From the NCBI GenBank assembly GCA_032718475.1, contig JAUCBJ010002682.1:19793-83792 (forward strand): a stretch of DNA of 64,000 nucleotides, given 5' to 3'. Source of the DNA: Nemertoderma westbladi. Lineage: Eukaryota > Animalia > Xenacoelomorpha. Position numbers and translations under genes: made by a program. Position 1 is the first letter of the stretch. Each line of letters starts with the position of its first letter. Of the stretch, positions 1 through 20,700 are shown in pieces. The notes beneath the pieces were generated by a model. It was not told where the DNA came from. It saw only the letters and a program-made list of their open reading frames with translations, and searched no databases.

Positions 1-967
1 CAGTTTGCTGCACCCTAACCAATGTGTATGCCTTGTACCGGTGTGCCTACGTCCTATCTGCGTACTAGTATCTGCCTGCGCTCTCTCTCCCCCCGTAGGA
101 ATATGAAGGTCTACTGCGGTTTTTCCTGAATCAAGACAGTACAGTCCCTATGATGTAATTTTGGGCTTACAGCGTGTCACTACGTCTACCTTTTATCTTT
201 TGGTCTTATACTTAGGTAGCAAGGATCGAACGCTGTCTAACCTTTCAGGCGATGGGCGAATAACTCTAAAATGGTATTGCGGGTTGTCTCTCGTCTACAT
301 TCCCGTGATGTTCCCGTTCATTGCTGCGGCCCGATCTCTAGCCGGCCATCCTGTCCCTGAGTTTGTTCACCGTAGTGAATTCATAGTAAAACAGAAAAGC
401 TGAGAGAATATTCTGACTTTATTACAGAAGACACAATTATAATACAATGTAATCTGAGAATAAACTAAGCACGACAGAGAGATTGATTATAAGAAGTTTG
501 TGTGAGTATAAAGTATACTAAAGTAGTAAACTAATGAACGAAATCGCACCTTTTTATACCAAATTTGTGCCGCAATCAATCGAGAAAATTCTCGATTGTT
601 CTATAGATTCTAACAAGGTTTTAAAGATAGCTATTGGTCCAGCTAATATATAACTTGCACGACATTGGTTACAATCAAATAACTACAGCCTTATTGGTAC
701 AGACAAATGCAATTAATTTGTAGCGGTTAATTTAAATGAGTTGAAATTCTGCACAAAAAATAATTCGCACTTACTAGGATTCGAACTCGATACCTACTAC
801 ACATATAATTTCCAACGCTCTACCAACTGAGCTACTGAACCACTTGACCGATGGGTGCACAATAGATAGAACCAATACTAATGAGAACTCAAAGCAATCT
901 TTACAAAGTTAATTCGAATAAAATAAAATTTTGAAAATCCACGGCATTTAGGGAATATAATTCTATA
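1..967 (-). repeat. 3' LTR (partial; continues beyond base 1)
   Basis: Matches the right-hand copy apart from a handful of substitutions/indels and a 15-bp duplication. Similarity ends at ...attctata (967), next to a short purine tract GGAGCGG on the minus strand (possible PPT). Minus-strand TATAAAAA at 558-551 and AATAAA at 423-418. Confidence 0.88.
755..841 (-). promoter_or_regulatory. tRNA-derived Pol III promoter module (A box, B box, T-run) in LTR U3
   Basis: Minus strand reads TAGCTCAGTTGGTAGAGC (A box and intact D arm) ... GAGTTCGAATCC (B box) ... TTTTTT. The acceptor and anticodon stems do not pair, so it is not a functional tRNA. The second copy at 15623-15702 is split by the insertion. 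Confidence 0.75.
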
Positions 968-1900
968 CCGCTCCATGAAAACAGGATATTATCGTGCATA
1001 AAATATACGGTTTTCACCAATAATCAATCAAACTATAGAATACTTAGGGCGTACTTACATATTTACAATTAAATTTCAAACAATACTTCCTTTTTACGTA
1101 ATGATTCGATACAAAAATAATTACAAATTCAAACTTTACGTAGTTAAGGCTTTACTAAGTAAGTACAATATAAATCTAAATTAAATTCACCAATATAAAT
1201 CTATTGCATCTCAGATATTGCATAAATTCAAACAATTACAAATACAAATAAATGAAAACAATAAGAAAGGCTCGCGAGTCTTCCATCTACTATTGCATCT
1301 CAAATATTGCATAAATTCAAGTAATTACAAATACTTTCGTACCTAAATGTAGATTGCATAAGTTTGGAATAATTACAAATATGAGTCTTTCTGAGCACAA
1401 AACTTTCTGACTATAAAACTTTCTAAATACAAAATAACACTTTACAAATGAAACTATAAGAAAGGCCCACGAGTCTTCCGTCTACTCTTACTTTCTGTTT
1501 CACTGTAAATACAAATACTACTTATAAAATATAAATTGCATAATATTCGGAACAATATAAATTGCATAAGCTCGGAATAATATAAATTGCATAAGTTCGA
1601 AATAATCACGTAAATATAAAATATAAATTCTTACTAAATATAAATCTTACTAAATATAAGTCTTTACTTAAATATAAATATAAACTGCATAAGTTTAGAA
1701 TAATATAAACCTTTTGCATCTCAAATATGAAACATAAATCTTTCAAATATAAGTTTCTTCTAAATATAAACTTTCTAAATTTCATAAATTCGGAACAATA
1801 CAAATTGCATAAGTTTTCTAAATATAAAACATATAATTCAAAATAAATCACAAATCATAAGAAAGGCCCACGAGTCTTCCGTCCACCCTTGCCCTCCCTT

Positions 1901-4900
1901 TTATCGCTTAGTAGATCGAGCCCTGCCGCGTCCTCGAAAACTGCGCACAGGTGACTTTGCTCGCGATATGGGACTAATGGGGCGAGTCACTGGTTTACTT
2001 GGGACGTTGAGAGACGGTGCGACTATTTCCTCACAAATTCGTCTATTTGGCATCCCAAAACCTCGACCAATTCCTCGTGACCGATCAGTTGTCGCTACAG
2101 TTGGTAGAACGTCTGGGAACGCGCGAGAAGTGGACGACGCAGACCCAAGAGTAGCTTGCGCCCCCTGTTGATCAGCTGGTGTATGTCCCGATCCTCCTAC
2201 CGGTTCTCTTGGAAGTGATACCGTATCCCGAGTAACTCGAATAGTCGGCTCAACTCCCTTGCGTTCTTCTACATTAATAATTTTCTTCAATTGTTGGCCC
2301 ACCTTCTGGACCCGTATGATCCTACCCTGTCCGTCCTCCCGAGGGTGACGTGCAGACGGCGCAACCGGAGTGGCTGATATATTTGTCGCCTCTAGGACCT
2401 CCTCTTCCTCGAATACGCTCGCTCGTATACGTTTGTGGTAAAACGCGGCTCGGTACGCCCATGCGACGGTTAACCAAGCTCCCTTATTCCGTTTTTCAGT
2501 TCGGAAACGATCGAATTCACCATACGTAATCCGATTAACGACTTTCTGAAAATTCCACGTGTTTTTGTTATCCGGGTGAATTTGTAACAGATACTCGCGC
2601 ACCACTCGGAATCCGCTGTCGTGGGGCAAAATATCGACAACCTCGATAAGTTCGTCATATTGGGGCATAGCGGAGATATATCCTTCCGACATCATCGTCT
2701 GGGGATTTACCGCCCAAAATCCGAGATGCGCTCTCATCGGAAACCGTCTTCTCTGTGCCGATACATGTTCGTCGGCTAAATCTTCCCACTCATCAAATAA
2801 CTTCCTCACGAGTTTTACAGATTCGTGTTCATAAGGTATGTCTCTCAGTTGGCATTCAGATGCTCTATGTCCCTTTATATTGCAGTAAGTACATTGAGCC
2901 ATAAATCTCCAGCAAGTATAAAAGGTATGAGACCCTTGATCCCCACACCATCCACAGATTAGCTGAGTCGTAGTAATGTGCTTTCCACTGCACTTTGCCA
3001 TATGATGTCCAGCGACGCCACATTTACTACACATCGTATTAGCAGGGTACCACACTCGTTCGTATATAAGATCTCCAATCGGTCGAGCGCTTCCTCCCAT
3101 ACTATAATCGTAATCATCTGGGTCTATGGGTTGGTAGGTTTCTGAAGGTTGTAGGCAAACTATAGCATCTGTTGCTTCAAGTTGTCGAATCTCCGTCTGA
3201 GATTTCTTCGGGAGGTTCCTTTCTATCTCAAGAAGTTCCTCTAAAGGATCGTCGGCGATCGTAGTAGTTACTTCGAATTCATCACCAAGGTGACCGATAG
3301 GCGCGCGCGTCTGCCGTGATTCTTCCGTAATCTCCACGATACGTTCTCCTTCATAGGGTAACAATGTAAACATAGATGGTCTTTCGATAAGAGATCCCGC
3401 ACAGCGAAGATACACGTCTCGAAATATACTAAATCCTGCTCGAGTAAAGGCATTACACTGAGCGTCGGAGTTGTAGAAGGGTTCAAGGAATCGTCTAAAC
3501 ACGTCGGTACGAATTCTCCCTTCCATGTAGAACGTATGATCTTCTCCGAGACAAAGTGGATGTCTTTTGAGAGTCCGAGACACAATGTCGGCGATTAGGC
3601 AAACATTCACTGACGACTCTATTGCTAAATAATATTGTAAGACCGCTCTTGGAGGTGACGTAATAGCCCAATACACGCATCCTCTCCATTTAAGCTGTGA
3701 TTCAAACTCACTCATATCTGGAGTATCACCTTCTCCATAAGTTTCAATATACTTGTTTCTCTTACCTTCCTTATAATCCCAATTGAATAACAGGTAGGAA
3801 ATGTATCCAGTTCCAGTCTTCTGAGTATTATACTCACGAAAATATCCCTGTTCTATAGACCACAGAATAAGAGGTCGAGTGTCGACGTATGGTGTCGGTA
3901 GTCGGTCATCGCTGTCCGTCATGCCGGCGAAGTCGCTAATTAAATCCTCCCTTACTCCTGATCCAACCTTTACAACAGTTTTATCTAAAATCATGTTTCT
4001 TACCATCTTCGGTAGCATTCTAGCGTCAATATTACAAGCTTGGTCCATCTTCTTTACTATATCGGTGATAAGATGGTGTCGCTTTGTATTCGCTGGAGGT
4101 ATCGGCATTCGTTTGTCGCTCCTCTGTCTACTGAAAACGTGCAGGACTCCGTCCGCCGCTCTAATCTGTATAGTCTTAGAAGTCAAACTCTGCTGATGAC
4201 TGCCGCCCTCGTTATCGTAAAACATATAACCGTTTTCCTGAAACGATCTAAACGTCCTAGTCCATTCATCCAACAATTCTTCCGAAGGTTGCCAAATCTT
4301 CTCTATATCCTTATCCTCATCGAAACGAATAACCTTACCTCGCCAATCTGCGGCAATATCCGTATCCGACTCGAAGGTTCCGGTTCCAATCCATAAACGA
4401 ATCGTCTTGGTTAGATATCCTTTTAGATTACTCGGAGCTATGTCGGCACCAGCTCTATCCAGTTCCTTAAAATCTTGGATATGAGGTGGAACGTTGTTCA
4501 CGACCTTTTGAGTAATATGTCTACGTAAATCATATATCTTACTCATATCGCTGAAAACAACTGCAGGAAGAAACTCCAAGTTTGAAATGATTTCTGGATG
4601 ATCCACGATGGGTATTTCGTACGTCGTATCCTGTCGGACTGGTATACTAATAGGGAAATTGAGTGTCGTACTCAATGGTTTCGTAGTTAAAGTACTATAT
4701 GGTTGCATTTCTCTTGGCCTCTCCGGGGATGCAATCTGTAATCTCTGAATAACGTTTTGAGCAAAGTTTATGCTCTCGAAAACTTCCGGTGTCATCTCCT
4801 TAGCTGAAGTTTGATCGTGTGACGTCCAATGGCAAGGTAGGCTCGCGAGTCTTCCACCCCATTCTTCCATCTCACCTTTCTCGAAAGCCTTGTAGGCTCT

Positions 4901-5626
4901 GTATAGGCTAAGAGCTTCTTTCTTTTCGCGGGTTGACTGATTCGCCTCGTCCAGCGTAAGTTCAAATACATCGGGTTCAACAACCTTAGGTGGGTAAATG
5001 ACAGTTTCTCCCGCCTTTGGTCCGGTCATAGCAAATGAATGATATGGATTCGATAAAGGATACCCTCCTTCCTGGTAGCGTAGTTGTTGATGATTCAAAC
5101 ACCTCGCCAATATCGGTTCGGGATTTTCCTTATTCAAACGCATCGGAATCGCATTTCGTTGTTCGCGCATACAAGAACCGCATTGATAATAAAGTTTATA
5201 AACTGAAAATTCTTCCTTGGTTTCTCTATCGTCCCCTCGAGTTCGTCTGTAAAGATGCATTCCATCGAATTCATCGCGTACCGCAGGCATAGGTTCATGC
5301 GCCTTTAGGTATTGCATGGTATGATACAAACGACTAATTTCAGTATCGGGGTCTTCGCTAATGTCTCCCGTATCACACAAAGCATCGTACGGGTAAAGTT
5401 CGTTGAAGGTTTGGCGCAAACTTTCGATTCTTTCGTTCAATGCGTTTTGCCTTCTCTTTAATACATTCGAGTCATATTTAGTTCTCGCGAGTTTCGCTGT
5501 ACTTTCCGATAATTCTTTTATACCAAATATAGTATAATCCTTGGCTCCAAATCTTTCGAATGGCGCTGCTGCCTCCTCTTGGATATCATATCCCCATCTC
5601 GGCTCTCCTTGTATCCCTTTCTCCAT
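1901..5626 (-). CDS. Retroelement accessory ORF2: DEDDy/RNase D/WRN-like 3'-5' exonuclease domain plus three CCHC-type zinc knuckles
   Basis: Uninterrupted 1241 aa. ExoI-like FYDNEG, TIQI, ExoII-like LPKMVRNMILDKTVVKVGSGVRED, YVDT, and ExoIII-like W..SPP...QYYLAIE (about 3600-4240). CSKCGVAGHHMAKC, CGWCGDQGSHTFYTC and CTYCNIKGHRASEC at about 2850-3030. Confidence 0.8.
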   Translation of the reverse strand: MEKGIQGEPRWGYDIQEEAAAPFERFGAKDYTIFGIKELSESTAKLARTKYDSNVLKRRQNALNERIESLRQTFNELYPYDALCDTGDISEDPDTEISRLYHTMQYLKAHEPMPAVRDEFDGMHLYRRTRGDDRETKEEFSVYKLYYQCGSCMREQRNAIPMRLNKENPEPILARCLNHQQLRYQEGGYPLSNPYHSFAMTGPKAGETVIYPPKVVEPDVFELTLDEANQSTREKKEALSLYRAYKAFEKGEMEEWGGRLASLPCHWTSHDQTSAKEMTPEVFESINFAQNVIQRLQIASPERPREMQPYSTLTTKPLSTTLNFPISIPVRQDTTYEIPIVDHPEIISNLEFLPAVVFSDMSKIYDLRRHITQKVVNNVPPHIQDFKELDRAGADIAPSNLKGYLTKTIRLWIGTGTFESDTDIAADWRGKVIRFDEDKDIEKIWQPSEELLDEWTRTFRSFQENGYMFYDNEGGSHQQSLTSKTIQIRAADGVLHVFSRQRSDKRMPIPPANTKRHHLITDIVKKMDQACNIDARMLPKMVRNMILDKTVVKVGSGVREDLISDFAGMTDSDDRLPTPYVDTRPLILWSIEQGYFREYNTQKTGTGYISYLLFNWDYKEGKRNKYIETYGEGDTPDMSEFESQLKWRGCVYWAITSPPRAVLQYYLAIESSVNVCLIADIVSRTLKRHPLCLGEDHTFYMEGRIRTDVFRRFLEPFYNSDAQCNAFTRAGFSIFRDVYLRCAGSLIERPSMFTLLPYEGERIVEITEESRQTRAPIGHLGDEFEVTTTIADDPLEELLEIERNLPKKSQTEIRQLEATDAIVCLQPSETYQPIDPDDYDYSMGGSARPIGDLIYERVWYPANTMCSKCGVAGHHMAKCSGKHITTTQLICGWCGDQGSHTFYTCWRFMAQCTYCNIKGHRASECQLRDIPYEHESVKLVRKLFDEWEDLADEHVSAQRRRFPMRAHLGFWAVNPQTMMSEGYISAMPQYDELIEVVDILPHDSGFRVVREYLLQIHPDNKNTWNFQKVVNRITYGEFDRFRTEKRNKGAWLTVAWAYRAAFYHKRIRASVFEEEEVLEATNISATPVAPSARHPREDGQGRIIRVQKVGQQLKKIINVEERKGVEPTIRVTRDTVSLPREPVGGSGHTPADQQGAQATLGSASSTSRAFPDVLPTVATTDRSRGIGRGFGMPNRRICEEIVAPSLNVPSKPVTRPISPISRAKSPVRSFRGRGRARSTKR

Positions 5627-6297
5627 AATTAGGGTGTAGTTACATAATCATTACTACTAGAGGGAATACAACAGAGTTTGTAGTTAGTTGTGAGGAGACG
5701 TGAGAGTTTCGTCTGCCCTTTGGGCTCGACAACGCTCTAACCTCCTACCCATAGCCTAAGATCTAGGGTTTCTTTAATGACACGCTGCTTCTTATCTAAA
5801 ATTTTTTGCCGAAATAAAAACGAATTTGGGCTAAACTGGCTGTGAGTCTAAAATACTCACTTTTTGATCCCAAACTATTATCAGAAAATAAGCAGTCAAG
5901 AATTAGTAATAAATATAGGGGAGTCTATTTTGTCGTAACTTATTGAAACAAGACCGTGTAAAATTTAATTAAAATTTTAAGAAAGGCTCGCAAGTCTTCC
6001 TCTCTTGTTTCTCTAATTTTAAGTTCCACCCGACTGTACCCTGAAATCTATTCACTGGAGAAAATTTTAAAAATTTTTTTTTTTTTTTTTTCAAATCCAA
6101 ATGGATTGTCTAAAATTTCGAAAATGTCTCAATATTGTGAGTTCCAAGTAGAATTCCATTTCTTATACCTACAAATCCCGCTCCTATGTGACACATAAGG
6201 GTACTACCCTCAATGTTCACATATAAAGACAATGGAATTCTACCGCTGTCCTTACTACGGTGTACAGGTACGTGGAAATCTATTTGTAAACTCCTAA

Positions 6298-9200
6298 TTA
6301 TTTACTAGTATTAGGTGGAGATTTGTAGTCTCCAGACTCGTTACGAGTCTCTTCAAGAAGTACGAGACGTTGAGTCGGTCTGTCTACTGTACGACCGTCA
6401 ATTGTCCGTACCGTCACAGTTCTTGTCACTCCATCCATAGATGGATGTGTGGCTAAAATGACACCTGTTATCCAGAAGCGTCTTTTTAGATTCACTTCTG
6501 CCAACAGCACGTGATCTCCCGGCTTTAATGCGCGGGTGTTATTGTACCAGTTTGTTCTGGCAGAAATAGAGGGCAAATAATGGTTTTGCCATATTTCCCA
6601 GAATTTGTTAGCCAGTAGTTGCGTGATTTTCCACGCTTTTCTACCGTAACTGTCGCTTTCTATTGGAATAGAAATCGGCGTTAATGTCGTCGGTGCCTGC
6701 ATAAGCAGGTGTGCCGGTGTTAAAGCAAACTGGGATTGTTTGTCATCGGGTACTAATACTATTGGTCTAGTATTTAGTATTGCCTCGATTTCAACAAACA
6801 ATGTTGTCAGTTGGTCGTCTGTTAATATGTGGTTTACTGGAATGACCTTTGCCATGGCTGTCTTTATAGATCTAATCAATCTCTCCCAGACTCCGCCTCT
6901 CCAAGGACTATCTGGAGGATTAAACTTCCAAACAATCTTGTGAGGTTGTAGTTCGTTCGAGATTTGATCATGATCTAATTTCTTAAAGGCTCTAGCAATC
7001 TCATTCCGAGCACCAACAAAGTTTGTCCCTTGGTCTGAGTACAAGCATTTTACTAGTCCGCGTCTAGCGATAAATCGCCGCAGTGCTAGTATAAACGCGT
7101 TGGTGGAAAGATCCATCACACGTTCAATGTGAACTGCCCTACTGGACATACATGTGAAAATCAGTCCCCAGCGTTTTACTAGTATGCGTCCACGTTTCGT
7201 ATGTATGGGACCAAAGCAATCAATTCCAGTCTCTGTAAAAGGTGGCCTGAATGCTTGAAGTCGTGCTTGTGGTAGTTCACTCATTTCTTGGGTACCTATT
7301 CTAGAATGTACCTTTTTACAAATAATACACGTACGTGTCACTGAACTTAATGCTTTACTGGGTCTAATTAATACAAATCTAGTACGTAAGTAGGAAAGAC
7401 AGTGGTGTCTTCCAGCGTGTTTTAGATGTAAATGTGCGTCCAGTATCATTGCACGTTGTAGTTCGTGATGTTGCGGTATTATTATTGGGTACCTAAAGTT
7501 TGTGTTAAAGTCAATGTTTTGAAGCCGAGATTTATGACAAATTAAGCCATTATAAATAATCGGACTCCAACTCAGTATTGGTGATGACTTGATTGATTGA
7601 CCTTGATTTATAGATGTGAATTCGCGCGCGAAATATCGCAGTTGATAATGGCGAATTAATTTTATCTCACACCTGTCAATCTCAGCCAATGTAAGTCGAC
7701 GTGTAAAGTCGCGTTTGCCTTTAACGTATTGTACAAAACGTACAATCCACGCTAATTTTCGGCAAGCGCTTGTCCAAGAATCTGTTAAGTTTACAATACG
7801 GTCGACGTAAGTATTTGTGACGTCATCAGGTAAGTCAATTGAGAATTTGGAAGGTTTTGAATTACTAGAAGGGCCCACGGGTCCGCCGGTAAGTATTCTC
7901 TTGTTGACTGTTGATCCGTCGGGGTCTACAAGTAATTTGTCCTTCTTTGTCTTCTTACCTTGATTGTCAGTACTTTGTAAGTCGATCGTTAATGGTGGTT
8001 TGAACTCTATGGGGTCAGCAGGTTTCGGTAGACTTATTTTCCTGCCGACATTAATCCCAGGTCTCACTATAGGTTGCAAGTTCGGTATGTCTCTTGAGCG
8101 CAAAGTAACACCTGTATTTACATTAGCGTAGGTACTACCCACATCTGTAATACATGAGGTTTCACCGTGCTTATGGATGCTCAAGTGTGTTAAAATTGGT
8201 AGTTTGTCAATACAAGGCCGCTCCAATAGGGAAACTGCGGCTTTATCGTTAGTCAATACATTACTAGTGTCTAGTCGACTGTCTAGTAATGTGTCTGGCG
8301 ATACGTCTGGTAACGTATCTGGTTGTTTGTCAATAGAAGGCCGCTCCAATAGAGAAACTGCGGCTTCACTGTTTGTCAGTGTGTTACTAACGTCTGGTGG
8401 AACATTTTGTGACATGTCTGTCAAAACGTCTGGTTGACCGTCTGGCAATATGTCTGGTGTAGAAAGGCTCGCAAGTCTTCCTCTCTTGACCTTTGAAGTT
8501 ATATCCTTCCATTTCGCCTTCGGTTTCTTCTTAAGTTTGTCCAATACAGCTTGTTCCACTTGCTGATTTCTCAACGCTTCATCATCGATATCGACGGGCA
8601 TTGTTGAGGTTGTTGGGGTAGGTAGACTCGCAAGCCTATCATCTGTCGTCGATGGAATCTCTAGCTGACTCGTCTTCTCCCCAAGTTCTAAACTCCGCTG
8701 GTGGGTTAGCTGCTCCTTGTGACTTATCATACTAGTTACACGTCTGTTATGTTTTGTCGACTGTAGTGTAGTATGGTTCACGTCGGGTGAGAAGGAATGA
8801 ATTGAATTTGTAGTTAATAAACTACATGTACTCTGTACATCGTCTTCCTCGTCACTTACGTCTAGTGTGCGCACAGGCGCTCGAGTATACCACCCTATCG
8901 GCGTTCTGCAGGCGTATGCGTTTCCCGCTACAACTGCCGATGGTCTGGTTTCCCACACCTGATGTAGGTTGAATTGGTCCGTCCCGATCAGCATTGCTAC
9001 CGATCTATAATTGACAGGACATTCGGGTACACCAAGGTGTCTGAAATACTTACGGTCCTCCAGAGATTGTTCCGGCACTGGACCTAGTAGGTTACTAAAG
9101 TCCTTCGTGGCCGCAAAGGTTAGATCTCTAAAGGGCAACAAAGACCTCTCCCTCTCGCTGTGTTGCGATTTTGGAAGAAGAGAGTCTAAGTCCAACTTAA

Positions 9201-12200
9201 CTCGTGTCACTGGTATTGCACGCTGTCCGTGCATACTACTTACTGTATAACTGACGTGCTTACCTTGTTTTAGATCCGTCACGACGTCAGCTATCTTTTC
9301 GTCCACGTAGCTATGGGATGAGGCTGAATCTAGAATCGCATAGATCCTCTTGCTCCCCTTTGTGCCAGTAACCTTGATCGGGATTACACTGAATCCCTTC
9401 AGTTGATCAGTAGTCAGGAGCGCGATCGACGGTTGTTCGTCTCCATTGGGATATTCGTCGTCGTCTTCTGATTCTTCGTCCGACGATCCGGATTGTTCTG
9501 AGAAGCAATCCTCAATATGTGTCACGAAGGTCGGAGTCGTTTTCGATTCTCGTTTTCGGTAGGCCGCATCACATCTCGCTGCTGCTTCCGGGTGTTCCCT
9601 GGCGAAGCGTTTCGTCGGCGTGTGGCTGTCTGTGTGGAGCAGACCGTCGTGGTTGCGTCCACAGGATGGACAAGTGTCGGTATTTGGGCAATCCTTACGG
9701 ACGTGTCCGTGTCGCGTACACCGCCAACAAGAGTCCAGTGGCCGTATCTGCAGCCGTCGTTCTTCCGAGTTCAACTCGCGAAATTGTCGACAACCTCGTA
9801 ACTTGTGACCAATATACCGCTTACCTAGATGCTCGCAGTATTGGCAGCCGTTGAAGTCGGTGCTGAGTTGCTGTCTCGTCTGTTTCGTCCCAATGGGCGC
9901 AGATACTCTATTACCGTCTGAGAATTGTCGTGATTCCGTCGGTGTGGCGTAAGTGGCCGTCTTAGTGGATGTTGTCTGGGGTTTTTGTCGGTTGGAGGAT
10001 GGCAGCGTGATTCCTTCTGCCACGATGTGCTGGTCGGTGTAGTTAGATCGAGTTTCTACTACCGCCTCCCTGGATATTAAAAGGTACACATCTTCTAATT
10101 TTAAGAATCCTCCCCGCTCCTCTCGCTGGTATTCGACCTTCCTCCACTCCCGACGAAGTCGATGGTGGAGTCGTCCTATTATCTTTAATAGGACTGTAGG
10201 GGTATTCCCGTAATCAAGTTGTCCAATTGATCTTAAGGTAGTGATAGCGTTCTTGATCTCGTCAGCTAGTTTTAGTAAGTCGACGGGTTTAGTGATAGCC
10301 CCTCCCTTACAGAGTTCCTCTATTACTGACCTGGCCATGCTCACTGTACCTCCGTATATCGAAGTTAAACGATCGTACGCTAGTTCGAAAGCGTCCGGTA
10401 CACCGACGAAAGTCTCCGCCAAACGTTTAGGTTCTCCTGACAACGTTTGGAGCAAGTAATTGAACTTCTCCCGTGATGTAAAGGCGCACACGGCGATCTG
10501 GGATTCGATATAGTCTACGAAGGTATGCCAGTGTTTTGAGCTACCGGAAAACTTCGGTGGTTGTTGTACCGGCAATCCCTGTCTGGCTGCGAATTTCGCT
10601 ATCTCCTCGGCAACGTTCAGAGTTTCGCGTCCTTGGTTGGTAACTTGGTTGATATCCCTTCTTGGCGCTTTTCCATGATACGATGTGGGGTTTGAAGGTA
10701 CCGGTCTTTGTGGTTCCTTCTGGTGTCTATTGTGTTCGAATTCGGAATTTCTCGAACTGTCGGTTTGAACTTCCTCCAGACGCTCCTCGATCTGAGCCAA
10801 CTTATTGACAACTGGTCGCAGAATGTCGGCGAACTGTTGTGTACTAATTGCGTCCGTTGGTTGTAACGCCTTTTGTGTTGGTGTATTCTGTGGAGGGTTG
10901 TCTGCAAAGGAGTTGTCTGAACGCTCGCGTTTATATTCATCGGCCGCCCCTGTTCTAAATACCTCGCGTTTCGGGTAATCCGATTCGCTCGAAGTACTAC
11001 TATCATCCGGATATGGTGGTCGACGTGCTCGCGTTCGTTGCGTCGTACGAATTCTAACATTCCGTTTCGGAACATCGTCCACTGATCTCCGTTGTTCGGT
11101 AGGCTCACAAGTCTTCCTCGAAGTCGTAGATTGCGATGTAAACTGGTTGAATGGTCGCGTCTCCACTGTTCTCCGTTGTTCGGTAGGCTCACAAGTCTTC
11201 CTCGAAGTCGTAGATTGCGATGTAAATTGGTTGAACGGTGGGCGAATGACAGCATTTGAAACAACTGGCCTTGTTGGTCGAAACGTCATTGGGTAAGCGT
11301 AGTGTGTAACGGGTTTAGGTGTCGACGGTGGACTCACCTGTTTTGTCGTCAGTAGCGCAGGTCCGGTCAATAAACTACTACGATCCGTAATCGGTGGGTT
11401 ACTTACCTTGACTTTCGGAATGGGCGACGACGTTGCTCTTGAAGGTATAAACTTGTCCGGAATAACAAACCTGTGTTCCGTCACACCATGGATAGGAGAA
11501 ATATCACTACTACCCGCAATCGAAACAGGTTCCTTTGTCGTAACCGGTGCAAACATATGAGTTACCTGTGGGAATCGTTGACACACGTCCTTTACTAATT
11601 GTCGTTCCCGTCCGGGTGCTCCTACGCTTCCTTCCTTCTTCCGTTCCTGAATTTGGCGATGTCTTACCTCTAACTGGTCCAAATCATGTCCGTCACGAGA
11701 TCTCATCGATCGATCGCGGGCCTTTTGATCCAGATCTTCCTCAGCGTTCGCTAATTCTCTCGCCTTCTTCTCAAGTTCGAAATGAAGTTTAGCTGTCTTC
11801 TCTCGTTGTTCCGTTTGTCGTTGTTGCGCCTCAAATTCTGCTTGTCGTATAGCGGATTGAGCCTTTATTTGCCGTGTTTTCATTTCGGCCCGTGCTTCCG
11901 AAACTAACCTGTCTCGTTCTAATTCCGCCGCTGCCGCTGCCGCTTGTCGCTCTGACTCTGCCGCTGCCGCTGCCGCTTGTCGCTCTGACTCTGCCGCTGC
12001 CGCTGCCGCTTGTCGCTCTGACTCTGCCGCTGCCGCTGCCGCTTGTCGGGCAATGTCTACCTCTAACCTTTCTACTTCAGCTGCTTCTAATTCAGCTTGT
12101 TCCTGTAGATGAGAGATTCTCGCTATATTCGCAACGCGTAGCTTCTCTTCCTCTACTGCTGCTTGCATCACTAGAAGTTGGGCTTGTTCCTCCATTTCTC

Positions 12201-13050
12201 GTCGTTGTCGGTAGAATTCTTGCTGTTGTCGAGCAACTTCTGACGTAACCATACTTCCCTCGCAGATTTCGCTACGAATACTTACCAGCGATTGATTTAG
12301 TATTCCCGGTGCCGATTCGATTTGTGCGAATGAAGTTTCCCTCGTATATTCCGGCACGGTTTCCAAATCGCCGACGTCTTCGCCGCACATGCGTAAGTGG
12401 TCCGTCAGGTGTTTTAATTGTCCATCCAGTCGGTACAGTTCCTGTTCTTCCTCGGGTTGTAATAATTCGTCCGAAACTGACTCACCTAACAACTGGTCCG
12501 CTTGTTCCTGTTGTATCTGCCTAATCGTCGACTTAAACTGAATCAGTTTCTCTCTAGCGATCATTAGTTTCTCGAGGATTCTAAGTTGAGTGTCCATGTC
12601 CTGTCTCTGTCTAGCTAGATCTTGTAGACCAATTAGGTTATCTACGGACTTGTGTACTCTAGTTTGCACTCTAACCTGGAGGGTGTAGAACTCGAATCGA
12701 GACATCGGAGCGGTCAACTCGTCTAATATGCGATGACCTTCTCCAATACTCCTGGTTATATGCGCCATGTAACCTCCGACGCTTCTAACCACACTTTCCT
12801 GGCTTCCTGCTGAACTTACCATGTCCGTTTCCCTGTATCTAGGTTGCGGAACAGTTAGAAAGTCCTCGGTCCTGCCGTCGCCTCGTACTACGGCATCCGG
12901 TACTCCCGTTGGATGTACTGGTGACGCACACGGTGTAGGTTCGGTAGGCTCGCGAGTCTTCCCCTGTTGTCCTTCCGCTGCTGACTTATCCGCGTCACAC
13001 GAGTCATAGTCGGTAGGTGTATTCTTTGTATAGTCTTGTTTGTCACTCAT
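6298..13050 (-). CDS. BEL/Pao gag-protease-integrase polyprotein lacking RT and RNase H
   Basis: 2250 aa. Coiled-coil N-terminus; gag PPKFSG..W..F; BEL triple Zn knuckle (CQYC..H...C, CWRC...H...C, CPSC..H...LH); protease AILDSAS and TPIGW; then a low-complexity spacer; then SW...RKLAWIVRF, HHCC, GIDCFGP, FTCMSSRAVHIE, SDQGTNF, GGVWERLIRSIK, LNTRP, LTPAHLL. No Y(V/M)DD-type RT motif in context. Confidence 0.93.
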   Translation of the reverse strand: MSDKQDYTKNTPTDYDSCDADKSAAEGQQGKTREPTEPTPCASPVHPTGVPDAVVRGDGRTEDFLTVPQPRYRETDMVSSAGSQESVVRSVGGYMAHITRSIGEGHRILDELTAPMSRFEFYTLQVRVQTRVHKSVDNLIGLQDLARQRQDMDTQLRILEKLMIAREKLIQFKSTIRQIQQEQADQLLGESVSDELLQPEEEQELYRLDGQLKHLTDHLRMCGEDVGDLETVPEYTRETSFAQIESAPGILNQSLVSIRSEICEGSMVTSEVARQQQEFYRQRREMEEQAQLLVMQAAVEEEKLRVANIARISHLQEQAELEAAEVERLEVDIARQAAAAAAESERQAAAAAAESERQAAAAAAESERQAAAAAAELERDRLVSEARAEMKTRQIKAQSAIRQAEFEAQQRQTEQREKTAKLHFELEKKARELANAEEDLDQKARDRSMRSRDGHDLDQLEVRHRQIQERKKEGSVGAPGRERQLVKDVCQRFPQVTHMFAPVTTKEPVSIAGSSDISPIHGVTEHRFVIPDKFIPSRATSSPIPKVKVSNPPITDRSSLLTGPALLTTKQVSPPSTPKPVTHYAYPMTFRPTRPVVSNAVIRPPFNQFTSQSTTSRKTCEPTEQRRTVETRPFNQFTSQSTTSRKTCEPTEQRRSVDDVPKRNVRIRTTQRTRARRPPYPDDSSTSSESDYPKREVFRTGAADEYKRERSDNSFADNPPQNTPTQKALQPTDAISTQQFADILRPVVNKLAQIEERLEEVQTDSSRNSEFEHNRHQKEPQRPVPSNPTSYHGKAPRRDINQVTNQGRETLNVAEEIAKFAARQGLPVQQPPKFSGSSKHWHTFVDYIESQIAVCAFTSREKFNYLLQTLSGEPKRLAETFVGVPDAFELAYDRLTSIYGGTVSMARSVIEELCKGGAITKPVDLLKLADEIKNAITTLRSIGQLDYGNTPTVLLKIIGRLHHRLRREWRKVEYQREERGGFLKLEDVYLLISREAVVETRSNYTDQHIVAEGITLPSSNRQKPQTTSTKTATYATPTESRQFSDGNRVSAPIGTKQTRQQLSTDFNGCQYCEHLGKRYIGHKLRGCRQFRELNSEERRLQIRPLDSCWRCTRHGHVRKDCPNTDTCPSCGRNHDGLLHTDSHTPTKRFAREHPEAAARCDAAYRKRESKTTPTFVTHIEDCFSEQSGSSDEESEDDDEYPNGDEQPSIALLTTDQLKGFSVIPIKVTGTKGSKRIYAILDSASSHSYVDEKIADVVTDLKQGKHVSYTVSSMHGQRAIPVTRVKLDLDSLLPKSQHSERERSLLPFRDLTFAATKDFSNLLGPVPEQSLEDRKYFRHLGVPECPVNYRSVAMLIGTDQFNLHQVWETRPSAVVAGNAYACRTPIGWYTRAPVRTLDVSDEEDDVQSTCSLLTTNSIHSFSPDVNHTTLQSTKHNRRVTSMISHKEQLTHQRSLELGEKTSQLEIPSTTDDRLASLPTPTTSTMPVDIDDEALRNQQVEQAVLDKLKKKPKAKWKDITSKVKRGRLASLSTPDILPDGQPDVLTDMSQNVPPDVSNTLTNSEAAVSLLERPSIDKQPDTLPDVSPDTLLDSRLDTSNVLTNDKAAVSLLERPCIDKLPILTHLSIHKHGETSCITDVGSTYANVNTGVTLRSRDIPNLQPIVRPGINVGRKISLPKPADPIEFKPPLTIDLQSTDNQGKKTKKDKLLVDPDGSTVNKRILTGGPVGPSSNSKPSKFSIDLPDDVTNTYVDRIVNLTDSWTSACRKLAWIVRFVQYVKGKRDFTRRLTLAEIDRCEIKLIRHYQLRYFAREFTSINQGQSIKSSPILSWSPIIYNGLICHKSRLQNIDFNTNFRYPIIIPQHHELQRAMILDAHLHLKHAGRHHCLSYLRTRFVLIRPSKALSSVTRTCIICKKVHSRIGTQEMSELPQARLQAFRPPFTETGIDCFGPIHTKRGRILVKRWGLIFTCMSSRAVHIERVMDLSTNAFILALRRFIARRGLVKCLYSDQGTNFVGARNEIARAFKKLDHDQISNELQPHKIVWKFNPPDSPWRGGVWERLIRSIKTAMAKVIPVNHILTDDQLTTLFVEIEAILNTRPIVLVPDDKQSQFALTPAHLLMQAPTTLTPISIPIESDSYGRKAWKITQLLANKFWEIWQNHYLPSISARTNWYNNTRALKPGDHVLLAEVNLKRRFWITGVILATHPSMDGVTRTVTVRTIDGRTVDRPTQRLVLLEETRNESGDYKSPPNTSK

Positions 13051-15702
13051 TTCGGTAGTTGTAAGTCAAGTAAAGTGAGTGTCAAAGTATCGAGTTTTAC
13101 CGTATTTATACAAAACGGTACTAATTACAGTCTTATAAAATTAGCCTACCGGCCGATTTTATAGCAGATGGATAAAATTAGCCTAAAACGGCCAATTTTA
13201 CAGCAAATAAATGTCACGGAATAAGTATATAATAAAATTAGCCTAGCGGCCAATTTTATAACAAATAAATCGGATAACGATATGCGTTATCAAAAGGTAA
13301 ATTAAATACAATAATACGGACTAATTCAGCAATGAACAAAGAAATCATACGGAATGCATAAATACTTGAGACAGTGGAACCCACAATAATTTTAACTAAT
13401 ACGGTAATGCCTAACTTATTTATGCAACTTTTCGAACTCACCCACTCCAATAATTCTCCAGAAAAACAGATTCCCAGATACAAACCGGACGTGAACCTTT
13501 CCGTTTTTAACGTTGCGGACGAAACGCGATTTTCCCAACCAAAGTTGTTGAGTTATCTATCTCCCAAACTTGCTAAACACGGTCTTGCTCCCGTTACAGT
13601 CTAGAAATGAGTTCTGAATCCTGAAAAAACAAAAGAGTTAGGTTTTACTTTACGAAAATTTTGTACCGGTACAATATGGTATTTAAACCCCTTTAAACAC
13701 CGGTATTCAATTCCAAAATATTTTACACGCGGTTCAAATCAAATTTTTATTTCAAAAAATTAGCACTCAGCTAATCAAATACGAATTTTTACCTCAAAAT
13801 ACAAAATTTTCAAATAACTTTAGTCCTACCGAACCGTAGTTCAGTAAAACATATTCCTACTAATTTAGGAAATATGTTAAAATAATCATATTCCTACTAA
13901 TTGAAGAGATACGCCTATTCCTACTATTGGAAGAGACGGTAACAATACCTGCAATATCTTACTGTAAAGTTTGTAAATCAAATCATAAATCCGACCTTCT
14001 CACCAAAACAGTAAACTCTAAGTAAGCGAATATATTGCAGTATTGATCTCTTATAACCGGTGAGGCAGAAAACAGTCTACGAGCAGACAAACTTCGATAA
14101 AACAAAATCCCGCGCAGCGAATCCTAAAATCAGGCTGACTCACTGACGGACTAAGGGGCTCGTATACTTTGCCGCGGTGTGATTTATATGGTTGGGCAAA
14201 GAGACGCTAGCTAGGTACAGGCAGAGATTTGGAGATGTCTAACTAGCGGGCAAAGCACAGTACGGACAAAGTTAATTTTATATATTTCGAGGTGTAAATA
14301 ATTTCTAACGCGCGTGTTAATTCTGAATGGTCAAAACAGTTTTGCTCCTTCACATATATAATTACTGGGTACGGTGTACATTTACGAATATTCTAATTTT
14401 GTAACTTGTAGGTCCAATACTCACGAATGATAAGGTTCCTTCCCCTCTTGCGTATTTCCAGGACTCAAATTCAGGCATAAGGTTAATACTACGCCCAGAA
14501 TTCGGCAATTTTAGGTACCAGGTCCCTGATACTAAGAAGAGATGTGTTAGTGTACTACTGTAGGCGTACGGGTACTAATAGCTATCCTGGCTCCTATCTA
14601 GAATTTTAGTCACCCAGGTAGTCCGGGTAACTTCCTATTAGGGCGTTGGCGGGGACACGGTAGATGTTAGTATATCCCTGATAGCCTCAATTTATTTGCG
14701 CCTAGTGTAAACTGCCCTACCGCCTGAACGGTACAATCCCAATTCAGGTGAAAACACAGCAACCCCCCTAGCCTACAAGTTCTGATGTAATGGACACTGT
14801 CGTACTGCAAATAGTCGCACACGCACCTGTACTTAGCAAGAGTTAAGCGTACAGTTTGCTGCACCCTAACCAATGTGTATGCCTTGTACCGGTGTGCCTA
14901 CGTCCTATCTGCGTACTAGTATCTGCCTGCGCTCTCTCTCCCCCCGTAGGAATATGAAGGTCTACTGTGGGTTTTTTCCTGAATCAAGACAGTACAGTCC
15001 CTATGATGTAATTTTGGGCTTACAGCGTGTCACTACGTCTACCTTTGATCTTTTGGTCTTATACTTAGGTAGCAAGGATCGAACGCTGTCTAACCTTTCA
15101 GGCGATGGGCGAATAACTCCAAAATGGTATTGCGAGTTGTCTCTCGTCTACATTCCCGTGATGTTCCCGTTCATTGCTGCGGCCCGATCTCTAGCCGGCC
15201 ATCCTGTCCCTGAGTTTGTTCACCGTAGTGAATTCATAGTAAAACAGAAAAGCTGAGAGAATATTCTGACTTTATTACAGAAGACACAATTATAATACAA
15301 TGTAATCTGAGAATAAACTAAGCACGACAGAGAGATTGATTATAAGAAGTTTGTGTGAGTATAAAGTATATACTAAAGTAGTATACTAAAGTAGTAAACT
15401 AATGAACGAAATCGCACCTTTTTATACCAAATTTGTGCCGCAATCAATCGAGAAAATTCTCGATTGTTCTATAGATTCTAACAAGGTTTTAAAGATAGCT
15501 ATTGGTCCAGCTAATATATAACTTGCACGACATTGGTTACAATCAAATAACTACAGTCTTATTGGTACAGACAAATGCAATTAATTTGTAGCGGTTAATT
15601 TAAATGAGTTGAAATTCTGCACAAAAAATAATTCGCACTTACTAGGATTCGAACTCGATACCTACTACACATATAATTTCCAACGCTCTACCAACTGAGC
15701 TA

Positions 15703-17637
15703 GGGCTGGGGTAAAACAGACTGTAAACAAGGGGGGAAAAGAATTACGCGGAAAAATGACCAGAGAGGGAGGAAAAACGCAGAGAGAAAGGAAAAACGCA
15801 ATAATGTATTTTTCTACCATACATATTTTTATTAGAATTATTATACTTTGTAAATATTGAAACATCAATATTAAGTATGAGAACATGTAATATACATAAT
15901 AGAGCATTGTACATTATACAGTAACTTATACAAATTTAACTTATTCAACAAATAATATATTATTCTTTACGTCTAACAACTATCAACGTAGGCTATTCTA
16001 CCCCTAAAAGTCTGTTTACACGTGGAAACTTTTAGATCAACTTTCTCGGCAAAATAGCAACTTTTTTTGGAAAAACTTAATTTAATCACTGTTTACACGT
16101 GGCAACTTTACCAGCAACATGGCCGGCAACTTTTAGAGCAACTTGGCTAGTTTGACTGTAAAATAGTGGGTCATTTTATCTACTAGCTATTTTTTGATAA
16201 TTTAATTTGATTATCCCGCTTTAATTCGCCAACGCAAATTCCTTCACGTTGCCGTCAAAGTTGAGCAACTTTTACGGCAATTTTTTTCAGCAACTTACGT
16301 GTTTACACGGAGCAACTTGATCGGCAACCTGGTTTGCTCTACAAGTTGCCGAGAAAGTTGCTCTAAAAGTTGCCACGTGTAAACATGCCTTAAGGCAAGG
16401 ATATGCTCATTGCTCATCTCAAAGATCCATTAGTTTTCCAATAATTTAATTTAAAACTAATAATAATACGATATGGAACTCTGATTCCTCTGCTGACGTA
16501 AAACATAAAAAATCTAAAATACAGTACCCTTTTCGAAATAGGTCACCTTCTAAAATATTAAATTAAAGTACACTGTAAACAATCCATCAAACATAGATCT
16601 TACCAATTTTCCATAACCTTTTCCATCCAATATTTTATATTTTATGTATTTCCTATCTCGACTCATTAGTTTAGTTTTATATACCTGGATCAGCATCGGA
16701 ACTCCAGTGAAACAATTGATTGCGCTGTAGATTAACTTAGGATAATTAATTATTTCCCTATCAGCAACAACAGTAACAATCTCACACCTCACAATATTCA
16801 CATAATAGTAATACCCCCCCCCCCCCCCCCTTTTTTTGCAAGGACTACACACCACCCCTACCTGCCCAGCACTCCCAGACAATACATTGGGCTATAATAC
16901 TAGCCACGCCATTGTCCAAAGTATTATTGTAACTTAACTTTTAATATTGCAATTATACAATATACTGTATATATTACTCTATATGTGCAATGTGAGTATC
17001 GGATTACCAAATAACAATAAATTTTAAACAATTGTCTTCTTTAGTCTAAAATTCGCAACTGTTCGGTGGTCCACCCACACGAACAACACCATGTAGTACT
17101 AAAACCTCTAGGCCTACAACTACATGCTCTAAAACCCCAAAAATGACCCCCCCCGCTAAATGGCAGGTCTCCGTTTGCTAATTCCCTTATCAAAACACGG
17201 TACTCATGGATGCATTTGAAGTCATGACACATTACTGAAAGTTTATTATTTTACTCATAAGTATAGACAACTATATCATTTATTTGTCAATATAACACGA
17301 TTAACGGACTCGTTTAATTAAACGTAACGTAAATCTTTAATGAAATTTAAAAATTCCTTCCAAATCCTTGCCTGTAATCAATAATTAATTAAAAGTTTAG
17401 TTGTTTTGTTGGGTTAACTTAGCAGCCTATCCAAGTACATGATTTCCCATCTCCTCAACCAGGGGAACTACTATATAGTTTAAACTATGTAAGCTATTTA
17501 TAGCAGCCAATAGAAAGCCGGGTTTTTCCTACCATCCACCTAAGCAAGCTACTCCCTTCCTCACCTCCACGCTACTCGCGACCTTAGCTCTAGCCTACTC
17601 TCAACCTTAGATTTACCACAGTCCTTAGGTATTCTGC
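15703..17637. mobile_element. Non-coding insertion without TIRs, in the tRNA-like A box, flanked by an 8-bp duplication CTGAGCTA
   Basis: Absent from the left LTR. CTGAGCTA occurs at 15695-15702 and 17638-17645 but only once (827-834) in the empty copy. Confidence 0.88.
16008..16390. mobile_element. PIF/Harbinger-type MITE nested in the insertion
   Basis: About 45-bp imperfect TIRs (aagtctgtttacacgtggaaacttttagatcaactttctcggcaa / ttgccgagaaagttgctctaaaagttgccacgtgtaaacatgcct), with TAA on both sides (16005-16007, 16391-16393). Confidence 0.8.
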
Positions 17638-17778
17638 CTGAGCTACTGAACCACTTGACCGATGGGTGCACAATAGATAGAACCAATACTAATGAGAACT
17701 CAAAGCAATCTTTACAAAGTTAATTCGAATAAAATAAAATTTTGAAAATCCACGGCATTTAGGGAATATAATTCTATA

Positions 17779-20700
17779 AGTGTAATGAAATAGTTAGTTA
17801 TGGTACAACTATAACACTAGTGTAATGAAATAGTTAGTTATGGTACAACTATAACACTAGTGTAATTAAATAGTTATGGTACAACTATAACACTAGTGTA
17901 ATGAAATAGTTATGGTACAACTATAACACTAGTGTAATGAAATAGTTATGGTACAACTATAACACTAGTGTAATGAAATAGTTATGGTACAACTATAACA
18001 CTAGTGTAATGAAATAGTTATGGTACAACTATAACACTAGTGTAATGAAATAGTTATGGTACAACTATTACACTAGTGTAGTTAAATAGTTATGGTACAA
18101 CTATTACACTAGTGTAATTAAATAGTTATGGTACAACTATAACACTAGTGTAATGAAATAGTTAGTTATGGTACAACTATAACACTAGTGTAATTAAATA
18201 GTTATGGTACAACTATAACACTAGTGTAATGAAATAGTTATGGTACAACTATAACACTAGTGTAGTTAAATAGTTATGGTACAACTATAACACTAGTGTA
18301 ATTAAATAGTTATGGTACAACTATAACACTAGTGTAATGAAATAGTTAGTTATGGTACAACTATAACACTAGTGTAATGAAATAGTTAGTTATGGTACAA
18401 CTATAACACTAGTGTAATTAAATAGTTATGGTACAACTATAACACTAGTGTAATGAAATAGTTATGGTACAACTATAACACTAGTGTAATTAAATAGTTA
18501 GTTATGGTACAACTATAACACTAGTGTAATTAAATAGTTAGTTATGGTACAACTATAACAATAGTGTAATGAAATAGTTATGGTACAACTATTACACTAG
18601 TGTAATTAAATAGTTATGGTACAGCTATAACACTAGTGTAATGAAATAGTTAGTTATGGTACAACTATTACACTAGTGTAATGAAATAGTTAGTTATGGT
18701 ACAACTATAACACCAGTGTAATGAAATAGTTATGGTACAACTATAACACTAGTGTAATGAAATAGTTATGGTACAACTATAACACTAGTGTAATGAAATA
18801 GTTATGGTACAACTATAACACTAGTGTAATGAAATAGTTATGGTACAACTATAACACTAGTGTAATGAAATAGTTATGGTACAACTATTACACTAGTGTA
18901 GTTAAATAGTTATGGTACAACTATAACACTAGTGTAGTTAAATAGTTATGGTACAACTATAACACTAGTGTAATGAAATAGTTATGGTACAACTATAACA
19001 CTAGTGTAATGAAATAGTTAGTTATGGTACAACTATAACACCAGTGTAATGAAATAGTTAGTTATGGTACAACTATAACACTAGTGTAATTAAATAGTTA
19101 TGGTACAACTATAACACTAGTGTAATGAAATAGTTATGGTACAACTATTACACTAGTGTAGTTAAATAGTTATGGTACAACTATAACACTAGTGTAGTTA
19201 AATAGTTATGGTACAACTATAACACTAGTGTAATTAAATAGTTATGGTACAACTATGACACTAGTGTAATTAAATAGTTATGGTACAACTATAACACTAG
19301 TGTAATGAAATAGTTATGGTACAACTATAACACTAGTGTAATTAAATAGTTATGGTACAACTATAACACTAGTGTAATGAAATAGTTATGGTACAACTAT
19401 AACACTAGTGTAATGAAATAGTTATGGTACAACTATAACACTAGTGTAATGAAATAGTTATGGTACAACTATAACACTAGTGTAATGAAATAGTTATGGT
19501 ACAACTATAACACTAGTGTAATGAAATAGTTACGGTACAACTATAACACTAGTGTAATGAAATAGTTATGGTACAACTATTACACCAGTGTAATGAAATA
19601 GTTATGGTACAACTATAACACTAGTGTAATTAAATAGTTATGGTACAACTATAACACTTGTGTAATGAAATAGTTATGGTACAACTATAACACTAGTGTA
19701 ATGAAATAGTTATGGTACAACTATTACACCAGTGTAATTAAATAGTTATGGTACAACTATAACACTAGTGTAATTAAATAGTTATGGTACAACTATAACA
19801 CTAGTGTAATGAAATAGTTATGGTACAACTATAACACTAGTGTAATGAAATAGTTATGGTACAACTATAACACTAGTGTAATGAAATAGTTATGGTACAA
19901 CTATAACACTAGTGTAATGAAATAGTTATGGTACAACTATTACACTAGTGTAGTTAAATAGTTATGGTACAACTATAACACTAGTGTAGTTAAATAGTTA
20001 TGGTACAACTATAACACTAGTGTAATGAAATAGTTAGATATAGTACAACTATAACACTAGTGTAATTAAATAGTTAGTTATGGTACAACTATAACACTAG
20101 TGTAATGAAATAGTTATGGTACAACTATAACACTAGTGTAATGAAATAGTTATGGTACAACTATTACACCAGTGTAATTAAATAGTTATGGTACAACTAT
20201 AATACTAGTGTAATTAAATAGTTATGGTACAACTATAACACTAGTGTAATTAAATAGTTATGGTACAACTATAACACTAGTGTAATTAAATAGTTATGGT
20301 ACAACTATAACACTAGTGTAATTAAATAGTTATGGTACAACTATAACACTAGTGTAATTAAATAGTTATGGTACAACTATAACACTAGTGTAATTAAATA
20401 GTTATGGTACAACTATAACACTAGTGTAATTAAATAGTTATGGTACAACTATAACACTAGTGTAATTAAATAGTTATGGTACAACTATAACACCAGTGTA
20501 ATGAAATAGTTATGGTACAACTATTACACTAGTGTAATTAAATAGTTATGGTACAACTATAAAACTAGTGTAATGAAATAGTTAGTTATGGTACAACTAT
20601 AACACTAGTGTAATTAAATAGTTAGTTATGGTACAACTATAACACTAGTGTAATTAAATAGTTATGGTACAACTATAACACCAGTGTAATGAAATAGTTA

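Follow-up and report, generated by a model that had tools for sequence, protein, structure and literature searches.

We describe here a retrotransposon with long terminal repeats (LTRs) in a 64,000-nucleotide (nt) stretch of the Nemertoderma westbladi genome (GenBank assembly GCA_032718475.1, contig JAUCBJ010002682.1, positions 19,793 to 83,792 of the forward strand), referred to as the window. The element is of the BEL/Pao type, lies on the minus strand of the window, and contains two long open reading frames (ORFs) between two LTRs arranged as a direct repeat. The interpretation that we moderately favor is that of a recent, BEL/Pao-derived element devoid of reverse transcriptase (RT) and RNase H whose gag-protease-integrase frame is still open; it would be one member of a high-copy family that likely shares this layout, and it likely borrows RT and RNase H from an autonomous BEL element.

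In LTR elements, near-identical LTRs are the outcome of reverse transcription. The two copies in the window differ by 5 substitutions in 967 aligned nt (99.5% identical) and by indels of 2 and 15 nt, which agrees with the near identity noted in a preliminary description of this DNA made from its letters alone. Judged by these LTRs, the window copy is a recent insertion. The 3' LTR (1..967, minus strand) is cut by the start of the window, its first 967 nt lying inside and matching positions 14852-15702 and 17638-17778 of the 5' LTR (putatively 14010..17778, minus strand; probably about 1.8 kb without an insertion described below).

The gag-pol frame without reverse transcriptase and RNase H

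ORF1 is free of stop codons from 13065 to 6298 (2,255 amino acids [aa] from stop to stop) and ORF2 from 5647 to 1901 (1,248 aa), as the preliminary description had stated. All parts of ORF1 lie on the minus strand and comprise gag (9401..13050), with a long repeat-rich N terminus, DUF1759, and three CCHC-type knuckles; an aspartic protease (8890..9400) with a DSAS motif (profile E value, 6.7e-17); and an integrase region (6298..7820) with an HHCC zinc finger, a D-D-E core, and DUF5641. Pfam detected DUF1759, a zinc knuckle, and DUF5641 in ORF1, and Integrase_H2C2 scored below its cut-off. For the protease-integrase region, 120 homologues with BEL-type domain sets were listed, at 31-39% identity, and PF05380 was present in 119 of them. 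DSAS is the commonest protease active-site motif (13 of 86 homologues), and the integrase retains HHCC, D-D-E, and 61 of the 69 columns that are conserved in at least 90% of the 120 homologues, which themselves retain between 56 and 69 (median, 67). By these motifs, the protease and integrase flanking the gap look sound.

In a tree of integrases, ORF1 was placed on the longest of 121 terminal branches, and no BEL superfamily was therefore assigned. ORF1 and ORF2 themselves were absent from the protein collection searched. The JGI metagenomes contained one complete, unrelated BEL element (34% identity); searches of viral contigs and prokaryote genomes gave no matches, and those of phages and plasmids returned only chance-level rows.

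The pol domains of BEL/Pao elements follow the order protease, RT, RNase H, and integrase. Profiles of RT and RNase H were built from 96 BEL homologues, and in a held-out control set of 24 homologues they recovered RT in 22 cases and RNase H in all 24. The same profiles found neither RT (best E value, 0.2) nor RNase H (best E value, 6.1) in the six frames of the whole window, and Pfam detected neither domain in ORF1 or ORF2. With positive controls working, the loss of both domains claimed in the preliminary description thus holds in a six-frame profile search. An RT that is hidden or decayed, whether in the spacer, in ORF2, or in a further frame, was likewise rejected.

The distance from the TxxGW motif to the integrase core is 559 aa, as compared to 755-884 aa in 67 homologues. 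Between TPIGW and the pre-integrase SW motif lies a stretch of 370 aa (7779..8889, minus strand); homology, as followed with a longer profile, ends approximately 60 aa past TPIGW and restarts 12 aa ahead of the SW motif. Between these points, a low-complexity spacer of approximately 300 aa (about 8720-7820), which contains a 123-nt repeat, stands in place of approximately 575 profile positions. The spacer had initially been put at about 360 aa (about 7790-8870); this is close to the length of the stretch, whereas its first 60 aa or so are an ordinary protease tail. Because the LTRs are nearly identical and yet no RT was found, RT would have been borrowed in trans. Borrowing in trans had also been suggested in the preliminary description; no partner was found (see below).

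Copies of the element in public sequencing runs

The stretch was found in five of nine listed public runs, four from organism A (three studies) and one from organism B, and one of these five may be the source of the window. Four of them (X1, X3, X4, and X5) were compared, with read depth not being a measure of copy number. When 968-17790 was divided into 30 bins, coverage was complete in X1, X3, and X4 and extended to 29 bins in X5. Across 7380-9380, the depth of the spacer was of the same order as that of the protease and integrase in the two DNA-type runs: spacer bins ranged from 17,253 to 101,778 in X1 and from 21,187 to 90,817 in X3, and the flanking protease and integrase bins from 22,744 to 87,403 and from 24,366 to 77,902, respectively. 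Furthermore, single contigs bridge the integrase end of the gap (X4 record 19, 7609-8013), the point where protease homology ends (X4 record 22, 8536-8869), and the protease end (X5, 8776-9306). The comparable depth and the contigs bridging both ends of the gap support the earlier view that this is not a decayed copy.

Between 7380 and 9380, indels at a level of at least 2% numbered two, both outside the spacer and both in one diverged contig. Over 968-17790 there were 126 indels at a level of at least 10%, and the 12 shown all fall outside the ORFs. Seven joints were observed in the spacer; the three of known size are all multiples of three, and among the four with unknown fill, two skip multiples of three and two do not. 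The proposal that the frame was kept across the lost domains is supported by these data, since no spacer frameshift was seen and the length changes of known size come in threes.

Coding differences between copies amounted to 59 distinct cases, drawn from 40 of 899 and 40 of 196 rows after 14 non-coding differences were dropped; 7 were shared. With an expected synonymous fraction of approximately 0.3, and as a small count among the rows shown rather than a dN/dS ratio, the synonymous share was 7/10 in ORF2 (p 0.008), 6/9 in the integrase (p 0.02), 6/7 in the protease (p 0.004), and 10/26 in the spacer (p 0.24). Stop codons were absent from the 59 differences. From this tally, the protease, integrase, and ORF2 appear to be under constraint, whereas in the spacer only the frame appears to be.

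ORF2, gag, protease, and integrase are all represented by low-depth contigs of approximately 80-86% identity, and further pieces, of 84-90% identity, fall inside the spacer; they are mutually unlinked. These diverged contigs suggest a sister family of the same layout. The long-lived lineage put forward in the preliminary description rests on these unlinked pieces, 80-90% identical, and is thus no more than plausible. It is likely that the high-copy family shares the RT-less layout.

ORF2 as a predicted exonuclease with zinc knuckles

ORF2 (1901..5626, minus strand; 1,241 aa from its ATG) contains a predicted DEDDy-type 3'-5' exonuclease at approximately aa 465-670 and three zinc-knuckle-like motifs at aa 866-925. 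No transmembrane segment was found in ORF2 (top 19-residue hydropathy, 1.38), and an envelope protein was rejected by this value. Among 1.84 billion proteins, P0122 was the only one to match the middle of ORF2 (50% library; E value, 2.3e-5); the second of the two ORF2 hits in this library was confined to the zinc knuckles. P0122 is a 558-aa putative exonuclease and zinc-knuckle protein from an ENA record on a 7,460-nt contig, and it may be another retroelement accessory. The two proteins are colinear over 489 columns, and the D-x-E, D, and Y-x3-E of the exonuclease pattern are aligned, with E at the final position in ORF2; the aligned acidic residues presumably correspond to motifs Exo I, Exo II, and Exo III. 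The nearest Atlas cluster of P0122 combines PF01612 with zf-CCHC (score 0.87, values below 0.9 being a lead only), and its structural model matches PF01612 proteins.

Through its homologue P0122, the middle of ORF2 can with good confidence be predicted to adopt a DEDDy exonuclease fold. The exonuclease gene named in the preliminary description is therefore backed by a lead through P0122, but not by a direct significant hit in the searches made. DEDDy profiles derived from 50 bacterial domains detected neither ORF2 nor P0122, ORF2 searches of the 90% protein collection gave no hit, and two AlphaFold models of the ORF2 middle had a mean pLDDT of approximately 31, so that the fold search was uninformative. 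As guesses, ORF2 might trim RNA ends or interfere with small-RNA silencing.

Splicing of the ORF2 message

Two splice joints were found, in X4 only and with depths of 250 and 211: 13619->15094 and 5656->13442. The corresponding introns, both GT-AG and on the minus strand, are a first intron at 13621..15094, which uses a donor in the LTR and spans the candidate primer-binding site (13988..14005, minus strand), and a second intron at 5657..13441. The donors read AAG/GTTAGA and TGG/GTGAGT on the element strand, and both acceptors are among just 7 sites in 16.8 kb with at least 12 pyrimidines in 15 positions. In the doubly spliced product, the primer site and the whole of ORF1 are removed and the leader lands 30 nt before the ORF2 ATG, a layout resembling that of an env message. 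The ORF2 leader, as delimited, contains 6 upstream ATGs, and translation of ORF2 is thus only putative. We infer that X4 is an RNA-derived run because of the splice joints, the rise in depth toward the 3' end, and a tenfold drop of LTR depth below approximately 15000. Among the listed public runs, no RNA run carrying the stretch was found.

A dispersed stem-loop motif

A 21-nt stem-loop motif with a YGYG loop occurs in 12 copies on the minus strand (1264..12962), at 1264, 1459, 1860, 3295, 4835, 5980, 7867, 8461, 8620, 11097, 11181, and 12942. A pattern built from these copies gave 12 matches with 0.02 expected, and a looser structural scan returned the same 12 on the element strand (shuffle mean, 0.04). 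The motif was absent from 17779-64000. Eight of the 12 copies are located inside ORFs, in two phases, and the spacer holds three of them, rather than the two counted initially. The 9 distinct copies show four forms of the loop-closing pair; the covariation score was 0.25, as compared to 0.16 in shuffles (10/500), and did not exceed 0.13 when slid. Rfam contained no family for these hairpins, and matches in viral contigs were limited to two, each single. The stem-loops are selected nucleic-acid motifs that are probably paired. Of possible roles, that of packaging signals is the one we would name first, although we hold it to be slightly less probable than its negation.

Evidence against this interpretation and alternative explanations

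Several observations weigh against the interpretation given above. No helper element, second full-length copy, or target site duplication (TSD) was seen in the window, the public runs, or the protein collection; as to the TSD, none is visible because the start of the window cuts the left LTR. The synonymous excess in gag is not significant (4/7; p 0.12), and the synonymous tallies draw on only 40/899 and 40/196 rows. Where the more diverged contigs extend across the protease end, their match breaks off at 8808-8810, which is still ordinary protease tail, and they therefore do not show RT loss in the sister family. X4 is labelled 'DNA?', and each splice joint is present in one contig; if X4 were DNA, the joints would come from retrocopies of this spliced RNA. 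In ORF2, Pfam found no exonuclease (weak knuckles only), the best exonuclease-side hit was at an E value of 0.028 in NCBIfam and of 1 in the PDB, and comparison with a DEDDy profile gave a probability of 0.8%, no better than the RT control. Other copies show two separate deletions of approximately 2 kb (within 3342-5487), each of which takes away the exonuclease-like part and disrupts the ORF2 frame. As regards the stem-loops, four copies folded alone did no better than shuffles (z, -0.36 to +1.71), and the inner pair probability was at least 0.5 in 7/12 copies on the antisense strand but in 1/12 on the sense strand. Finally, the spacer of some copies is extended at 8537 by at least 185 nt; this extended form is the sole form at 8567-8584 in X4, where depth drops from 888 to 138 across 8537, and accounts for approximately 14% of the depth in X3 (linked variants).

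This extra sequence could make up a longer spacer, or it could hold RT and RNase H. In the latter case, the window copy would belong to an in-frame deleted subfamily with an autonomous parent in the same genome that carries RT-RNase H at 8537, comparable to IAP 1-delta-1 in mice, and the purifying signal would be inherited from the parent. We judge this unlikely. It is favored by contig ends that hang loose to the left and right of 8536-8538 (X1 and X4), by 185 loose letters at 8537 that never rejoin the element, by the predominance of the extended form in the RNA-looking run X4, and by bin 8519-8585 being the shallowest spacer bin in X1 and X3. However, RT at 8537 is disfavored because the position of the site fits the spacing of BEL RT and RNase H poorly: counted downstream from TPIGW, the site lies at 123 aa, as compared to 63-80 aa for the RT-start motif of 39 homologues, and counted back from the SW motif, it lies at 252 aa, as compared to 45-66 aa for the end of RNase H in 36 homologues. 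In addition, protease-tail homology ends approximately 60 aa ahead of 8537, the extended form included, the remaining length changes in the spacer are small and in frame, and only 3-5 contigs in X1 are loose at 8537, versus 17-28 that carry common variants nearby. A 1,473-aa BEL protein (P0012) from which RT and most of RNase H have been cleanly deleted in frame was rejected as a relative (it is a singleton with 36% identity and a different junction); it shows that in-frame RT deletions arise independently.

A second alternative is a two-part system in which RT is supplied either by a complementary partner that has lost gag or integrase or by an LTR element outside the BEL group, neither of the two parts being autonomous. 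The element retains all functions except RT and RNase H at very high depth and would be a useful supplier of capsid and integrase; a partial mutualism was proposed for wheat Quinta and Cereba (PMC11302176), and no close RT-bearing relative is among the listed homologues (best identities, 31-39%). No partner sequence was seen, although the protein collection does not contain the copies of this organism, so that its blank says little. We regard such a system as improbable.

Equally improbable, in our view, is a dead or dying deletion derivative that was multiplied at the DNA level in satellite-rich heterochromatin and whose open frames reflect youth instead of function. The copy does lie next to a 36-bp satellite, tandem arrays abound in the window, its 5' LTR was hit by another transposon, and other copies carry the frame-breaking ORF2 deletions. 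Against this stand the synonymous excess in three regions, the absence of spacer frameshifts, and the spliced forms, as well as the 61/69 conserved integrase columns (homologues, 56-69) and the many independent substitutions by which the copies differ.

Proposed life cycle and comparison with known elements

For an RT-less element that borrows RT and RNase H, we propose the following cycle. RNA polymerase II (Pol II) would transcribe the element from the LTR, and the unspliced RNA would serve as both genome and ORF1 message. The protease encoded in ORF1 would process the ORF1 product into Gag and integrase, with the spacer as a possible neutral tether whose frame, seen to be retained, would be kept only so that integrase is still made. 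The doubly spliced RNA, with joints from one run, would connect the LTR leader to ORF2 in the manner of an env message, and ORF2, a predicted DEDDy 3'-5' exonuclease with zinc knuckles, would act as an RNA-binding accessory and not as an envelope. The stem-loops might be binding sites for Gag or ORF2 that favor packaging of the element RNA. Helper Gag-Pol would then co-assemble and supply RT and RNase H, whereas insertion of the cDNA would be carried out by the integrase that the element itself encodes. Whether linked in this way or not, ORF2, the stem-loops, and the tRNA-like module might form one coherent system, as the preliminary description suggested.

BEL/Pao elements (Belpaoviridae) are described as 4.2-10 kb in size with LTRs of 0.2-1.2 kb (PMC3118150). 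The present element resembles them in its single gag-pol frame, DUF1759 gag, CCHC knuckles, aspartic protease, DUF5641 integrase, and BEL order, but differs in that RT and RNase H are missing, in its size of approximately 16.7 kb with LTRs of probably 1.8 kb, and in an extra ORF that is not env (PMC3118150). The semi-autonomous wheat Gypsy families RLG_Sabrina_SA, RLG_WHAM, and RLG_Quinta are high-copy, RT-less, have gag in frame, and are mobilized in trans (PMC9744471, PMC11302176). Absence of RT and a gag that is open across many copies are shared with Sabrina_SA, which retains the protease too, and with Quinta; however, the wheat families are integrase-less Gypsy elements, whereas here integrase is retained in a BEL element with a spliced second ORF (PMC9744471, PMC11302176). 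Mouse IAP 1-delta-1 has an internal gag-pol deletion with an in-frame fusion that aids mobilization in cis; unlike the element described here, in which gag and protease are whole and the gap is a drifting spacer, it depends on Gag and Pol supplied in trans, and a full-length parent nearly identical to it exists (PMC7411935). The bdelloid rotifer elements Juno and Vesta carry a DEDDy-exonuclease ORF3 in the env position (PMC5408684; cited as well in PMC6431247 and PMC6338049) and are thus similar in having an enzyme-like extra ORF at that place; they are not BEL elements and kept RT, whereas ORF2 has 1,241 aa, zinc knuckles, and a distant, lead-level likeness (PMC5408684). In the full texts covered by crude word matching, with Repbase lying outside, no BEL family was described that lacks only RT and RNase H or that has an exonuclease ORF. 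The supplementary family tables of PMC3118150 could bear on novelty.

In the known RT-less LTR families compared, gag, or gag and protease, was kept and integrase was dropped with RT. A far-reaching version of the RT-borrowing interpretation, which we consider rather doubtful, is that an old BEL lineage of at least two families, approximately 15-20% apart, gave up RT for good and kept capsid, protease, and integrase, with a dozen packaging hairpins and a spliced exonuclease-zinc-finger accessory that replaces env; it would be satellite-like, providing particles and integration itself and taking only RT from a partner, perhaps one that is immobile without it. A thriving family with only RT and RNase H lost would in itself mean that elements can share the polymerase alone and that an own integrase and capsid pay, for example by way of the choice of targets or a preference in packaging. 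BEL elements would join those known to have exonuclease accessories and env-like splicing, and the dispersed packaging signals of a retrotransposon could be studied in a simple test case. Families of such an RT-less type escape RT-based surveys and trees.

LTR ends, tRNA-like module, and surrounding repeats

The inner end of the 5' LTR was placed near 14010 because a candidate primer-binding site that begins with TGG is present at 14005 and because depth steps in the bin from 13871, in all runs examined. On this basis, the LTR probably measures approximately 1.8 kb and the element approximately 16.7 kb. A short purine-rich tract ahead of the 3' LTR (968..980, minus strand) is a candidate polypurine tract, and X4 contigs exit the LTR at 17778 into a tract that resembles it. 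A motif scan of the LTR identified candidate Pol II signals (418..558, minus strand; TATAAA at 558, AATAAA at 423) of putative function. Both LTR copies start, at 967 and 17778, with TATA and not with TG, and the inner end as placed has no clear CA; from their letters, these are possibly non-canonical integrase ends.

The U3 region contains a tRNA-like RNA polymerase III (Pol III) module (755..841, minus strand) with an A box at 823-834, a B box at 777-786, and a T6 at 755-760. Rfam scored the module as tRNA at 12.2 bits (E value, 8.1), below the cut-off, and ARAGORN found no tRNA in it; of the tRNA-like promoter described earlier, the boxes and T6 are present, but the tRNA likeness is not significant by itself. 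Since T6 follows 17 nt past the B box, the module cannot yield genomic RNA and was rejected as the promoter of it. It is likely either a captured Pol III promoter, giving an RNA of at most approximately 85 nt, or a chromatin barrier. Many LTRs hold tRNA-like pieces (PMC10886601), and Helenus TRIMs and TRIMp3 have tRNA-derived A and B boxes within a non-autonomous LTR, although Helenus elements are non-coding and of approximately 1 kb or less, whereas two long ORFs are present here (PMC10886601). The module is thus not new as a feature, as far as this source extends.

The right LTR is interrupted by a secondary insertion of 1,935 nt (15703..17637, no strand assigned), located in the A box of the tRNA-like module and flanked by an 8-bp duplication (15695-15702 and 17638-17645). 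The tRNA-targeting Dada elements insert into the A box with the same duplication, as does Dada-tIA_PMar (PMC3706591). The insertion has no terminal inverted repeats, only one frame of at least 100 aa (113 aa), and no frame for a Dada transposase; it is likely a non-autonomous Dada-type element, by target and duplication rather than by comparison with Dada sequences. The empty site was present in all four runs. Nested in the insertion is a MITE-like piece at 16003-16395 with 50-nt arms that are 88% complementary. On its right side, the element adjoins the 36-bp satellite (within the region 17795-60075 of the window), and much of the window is taken up by tandem arrays whose units measure 51, 54 (17 kb, GC-rich), 24, and 39 bp.

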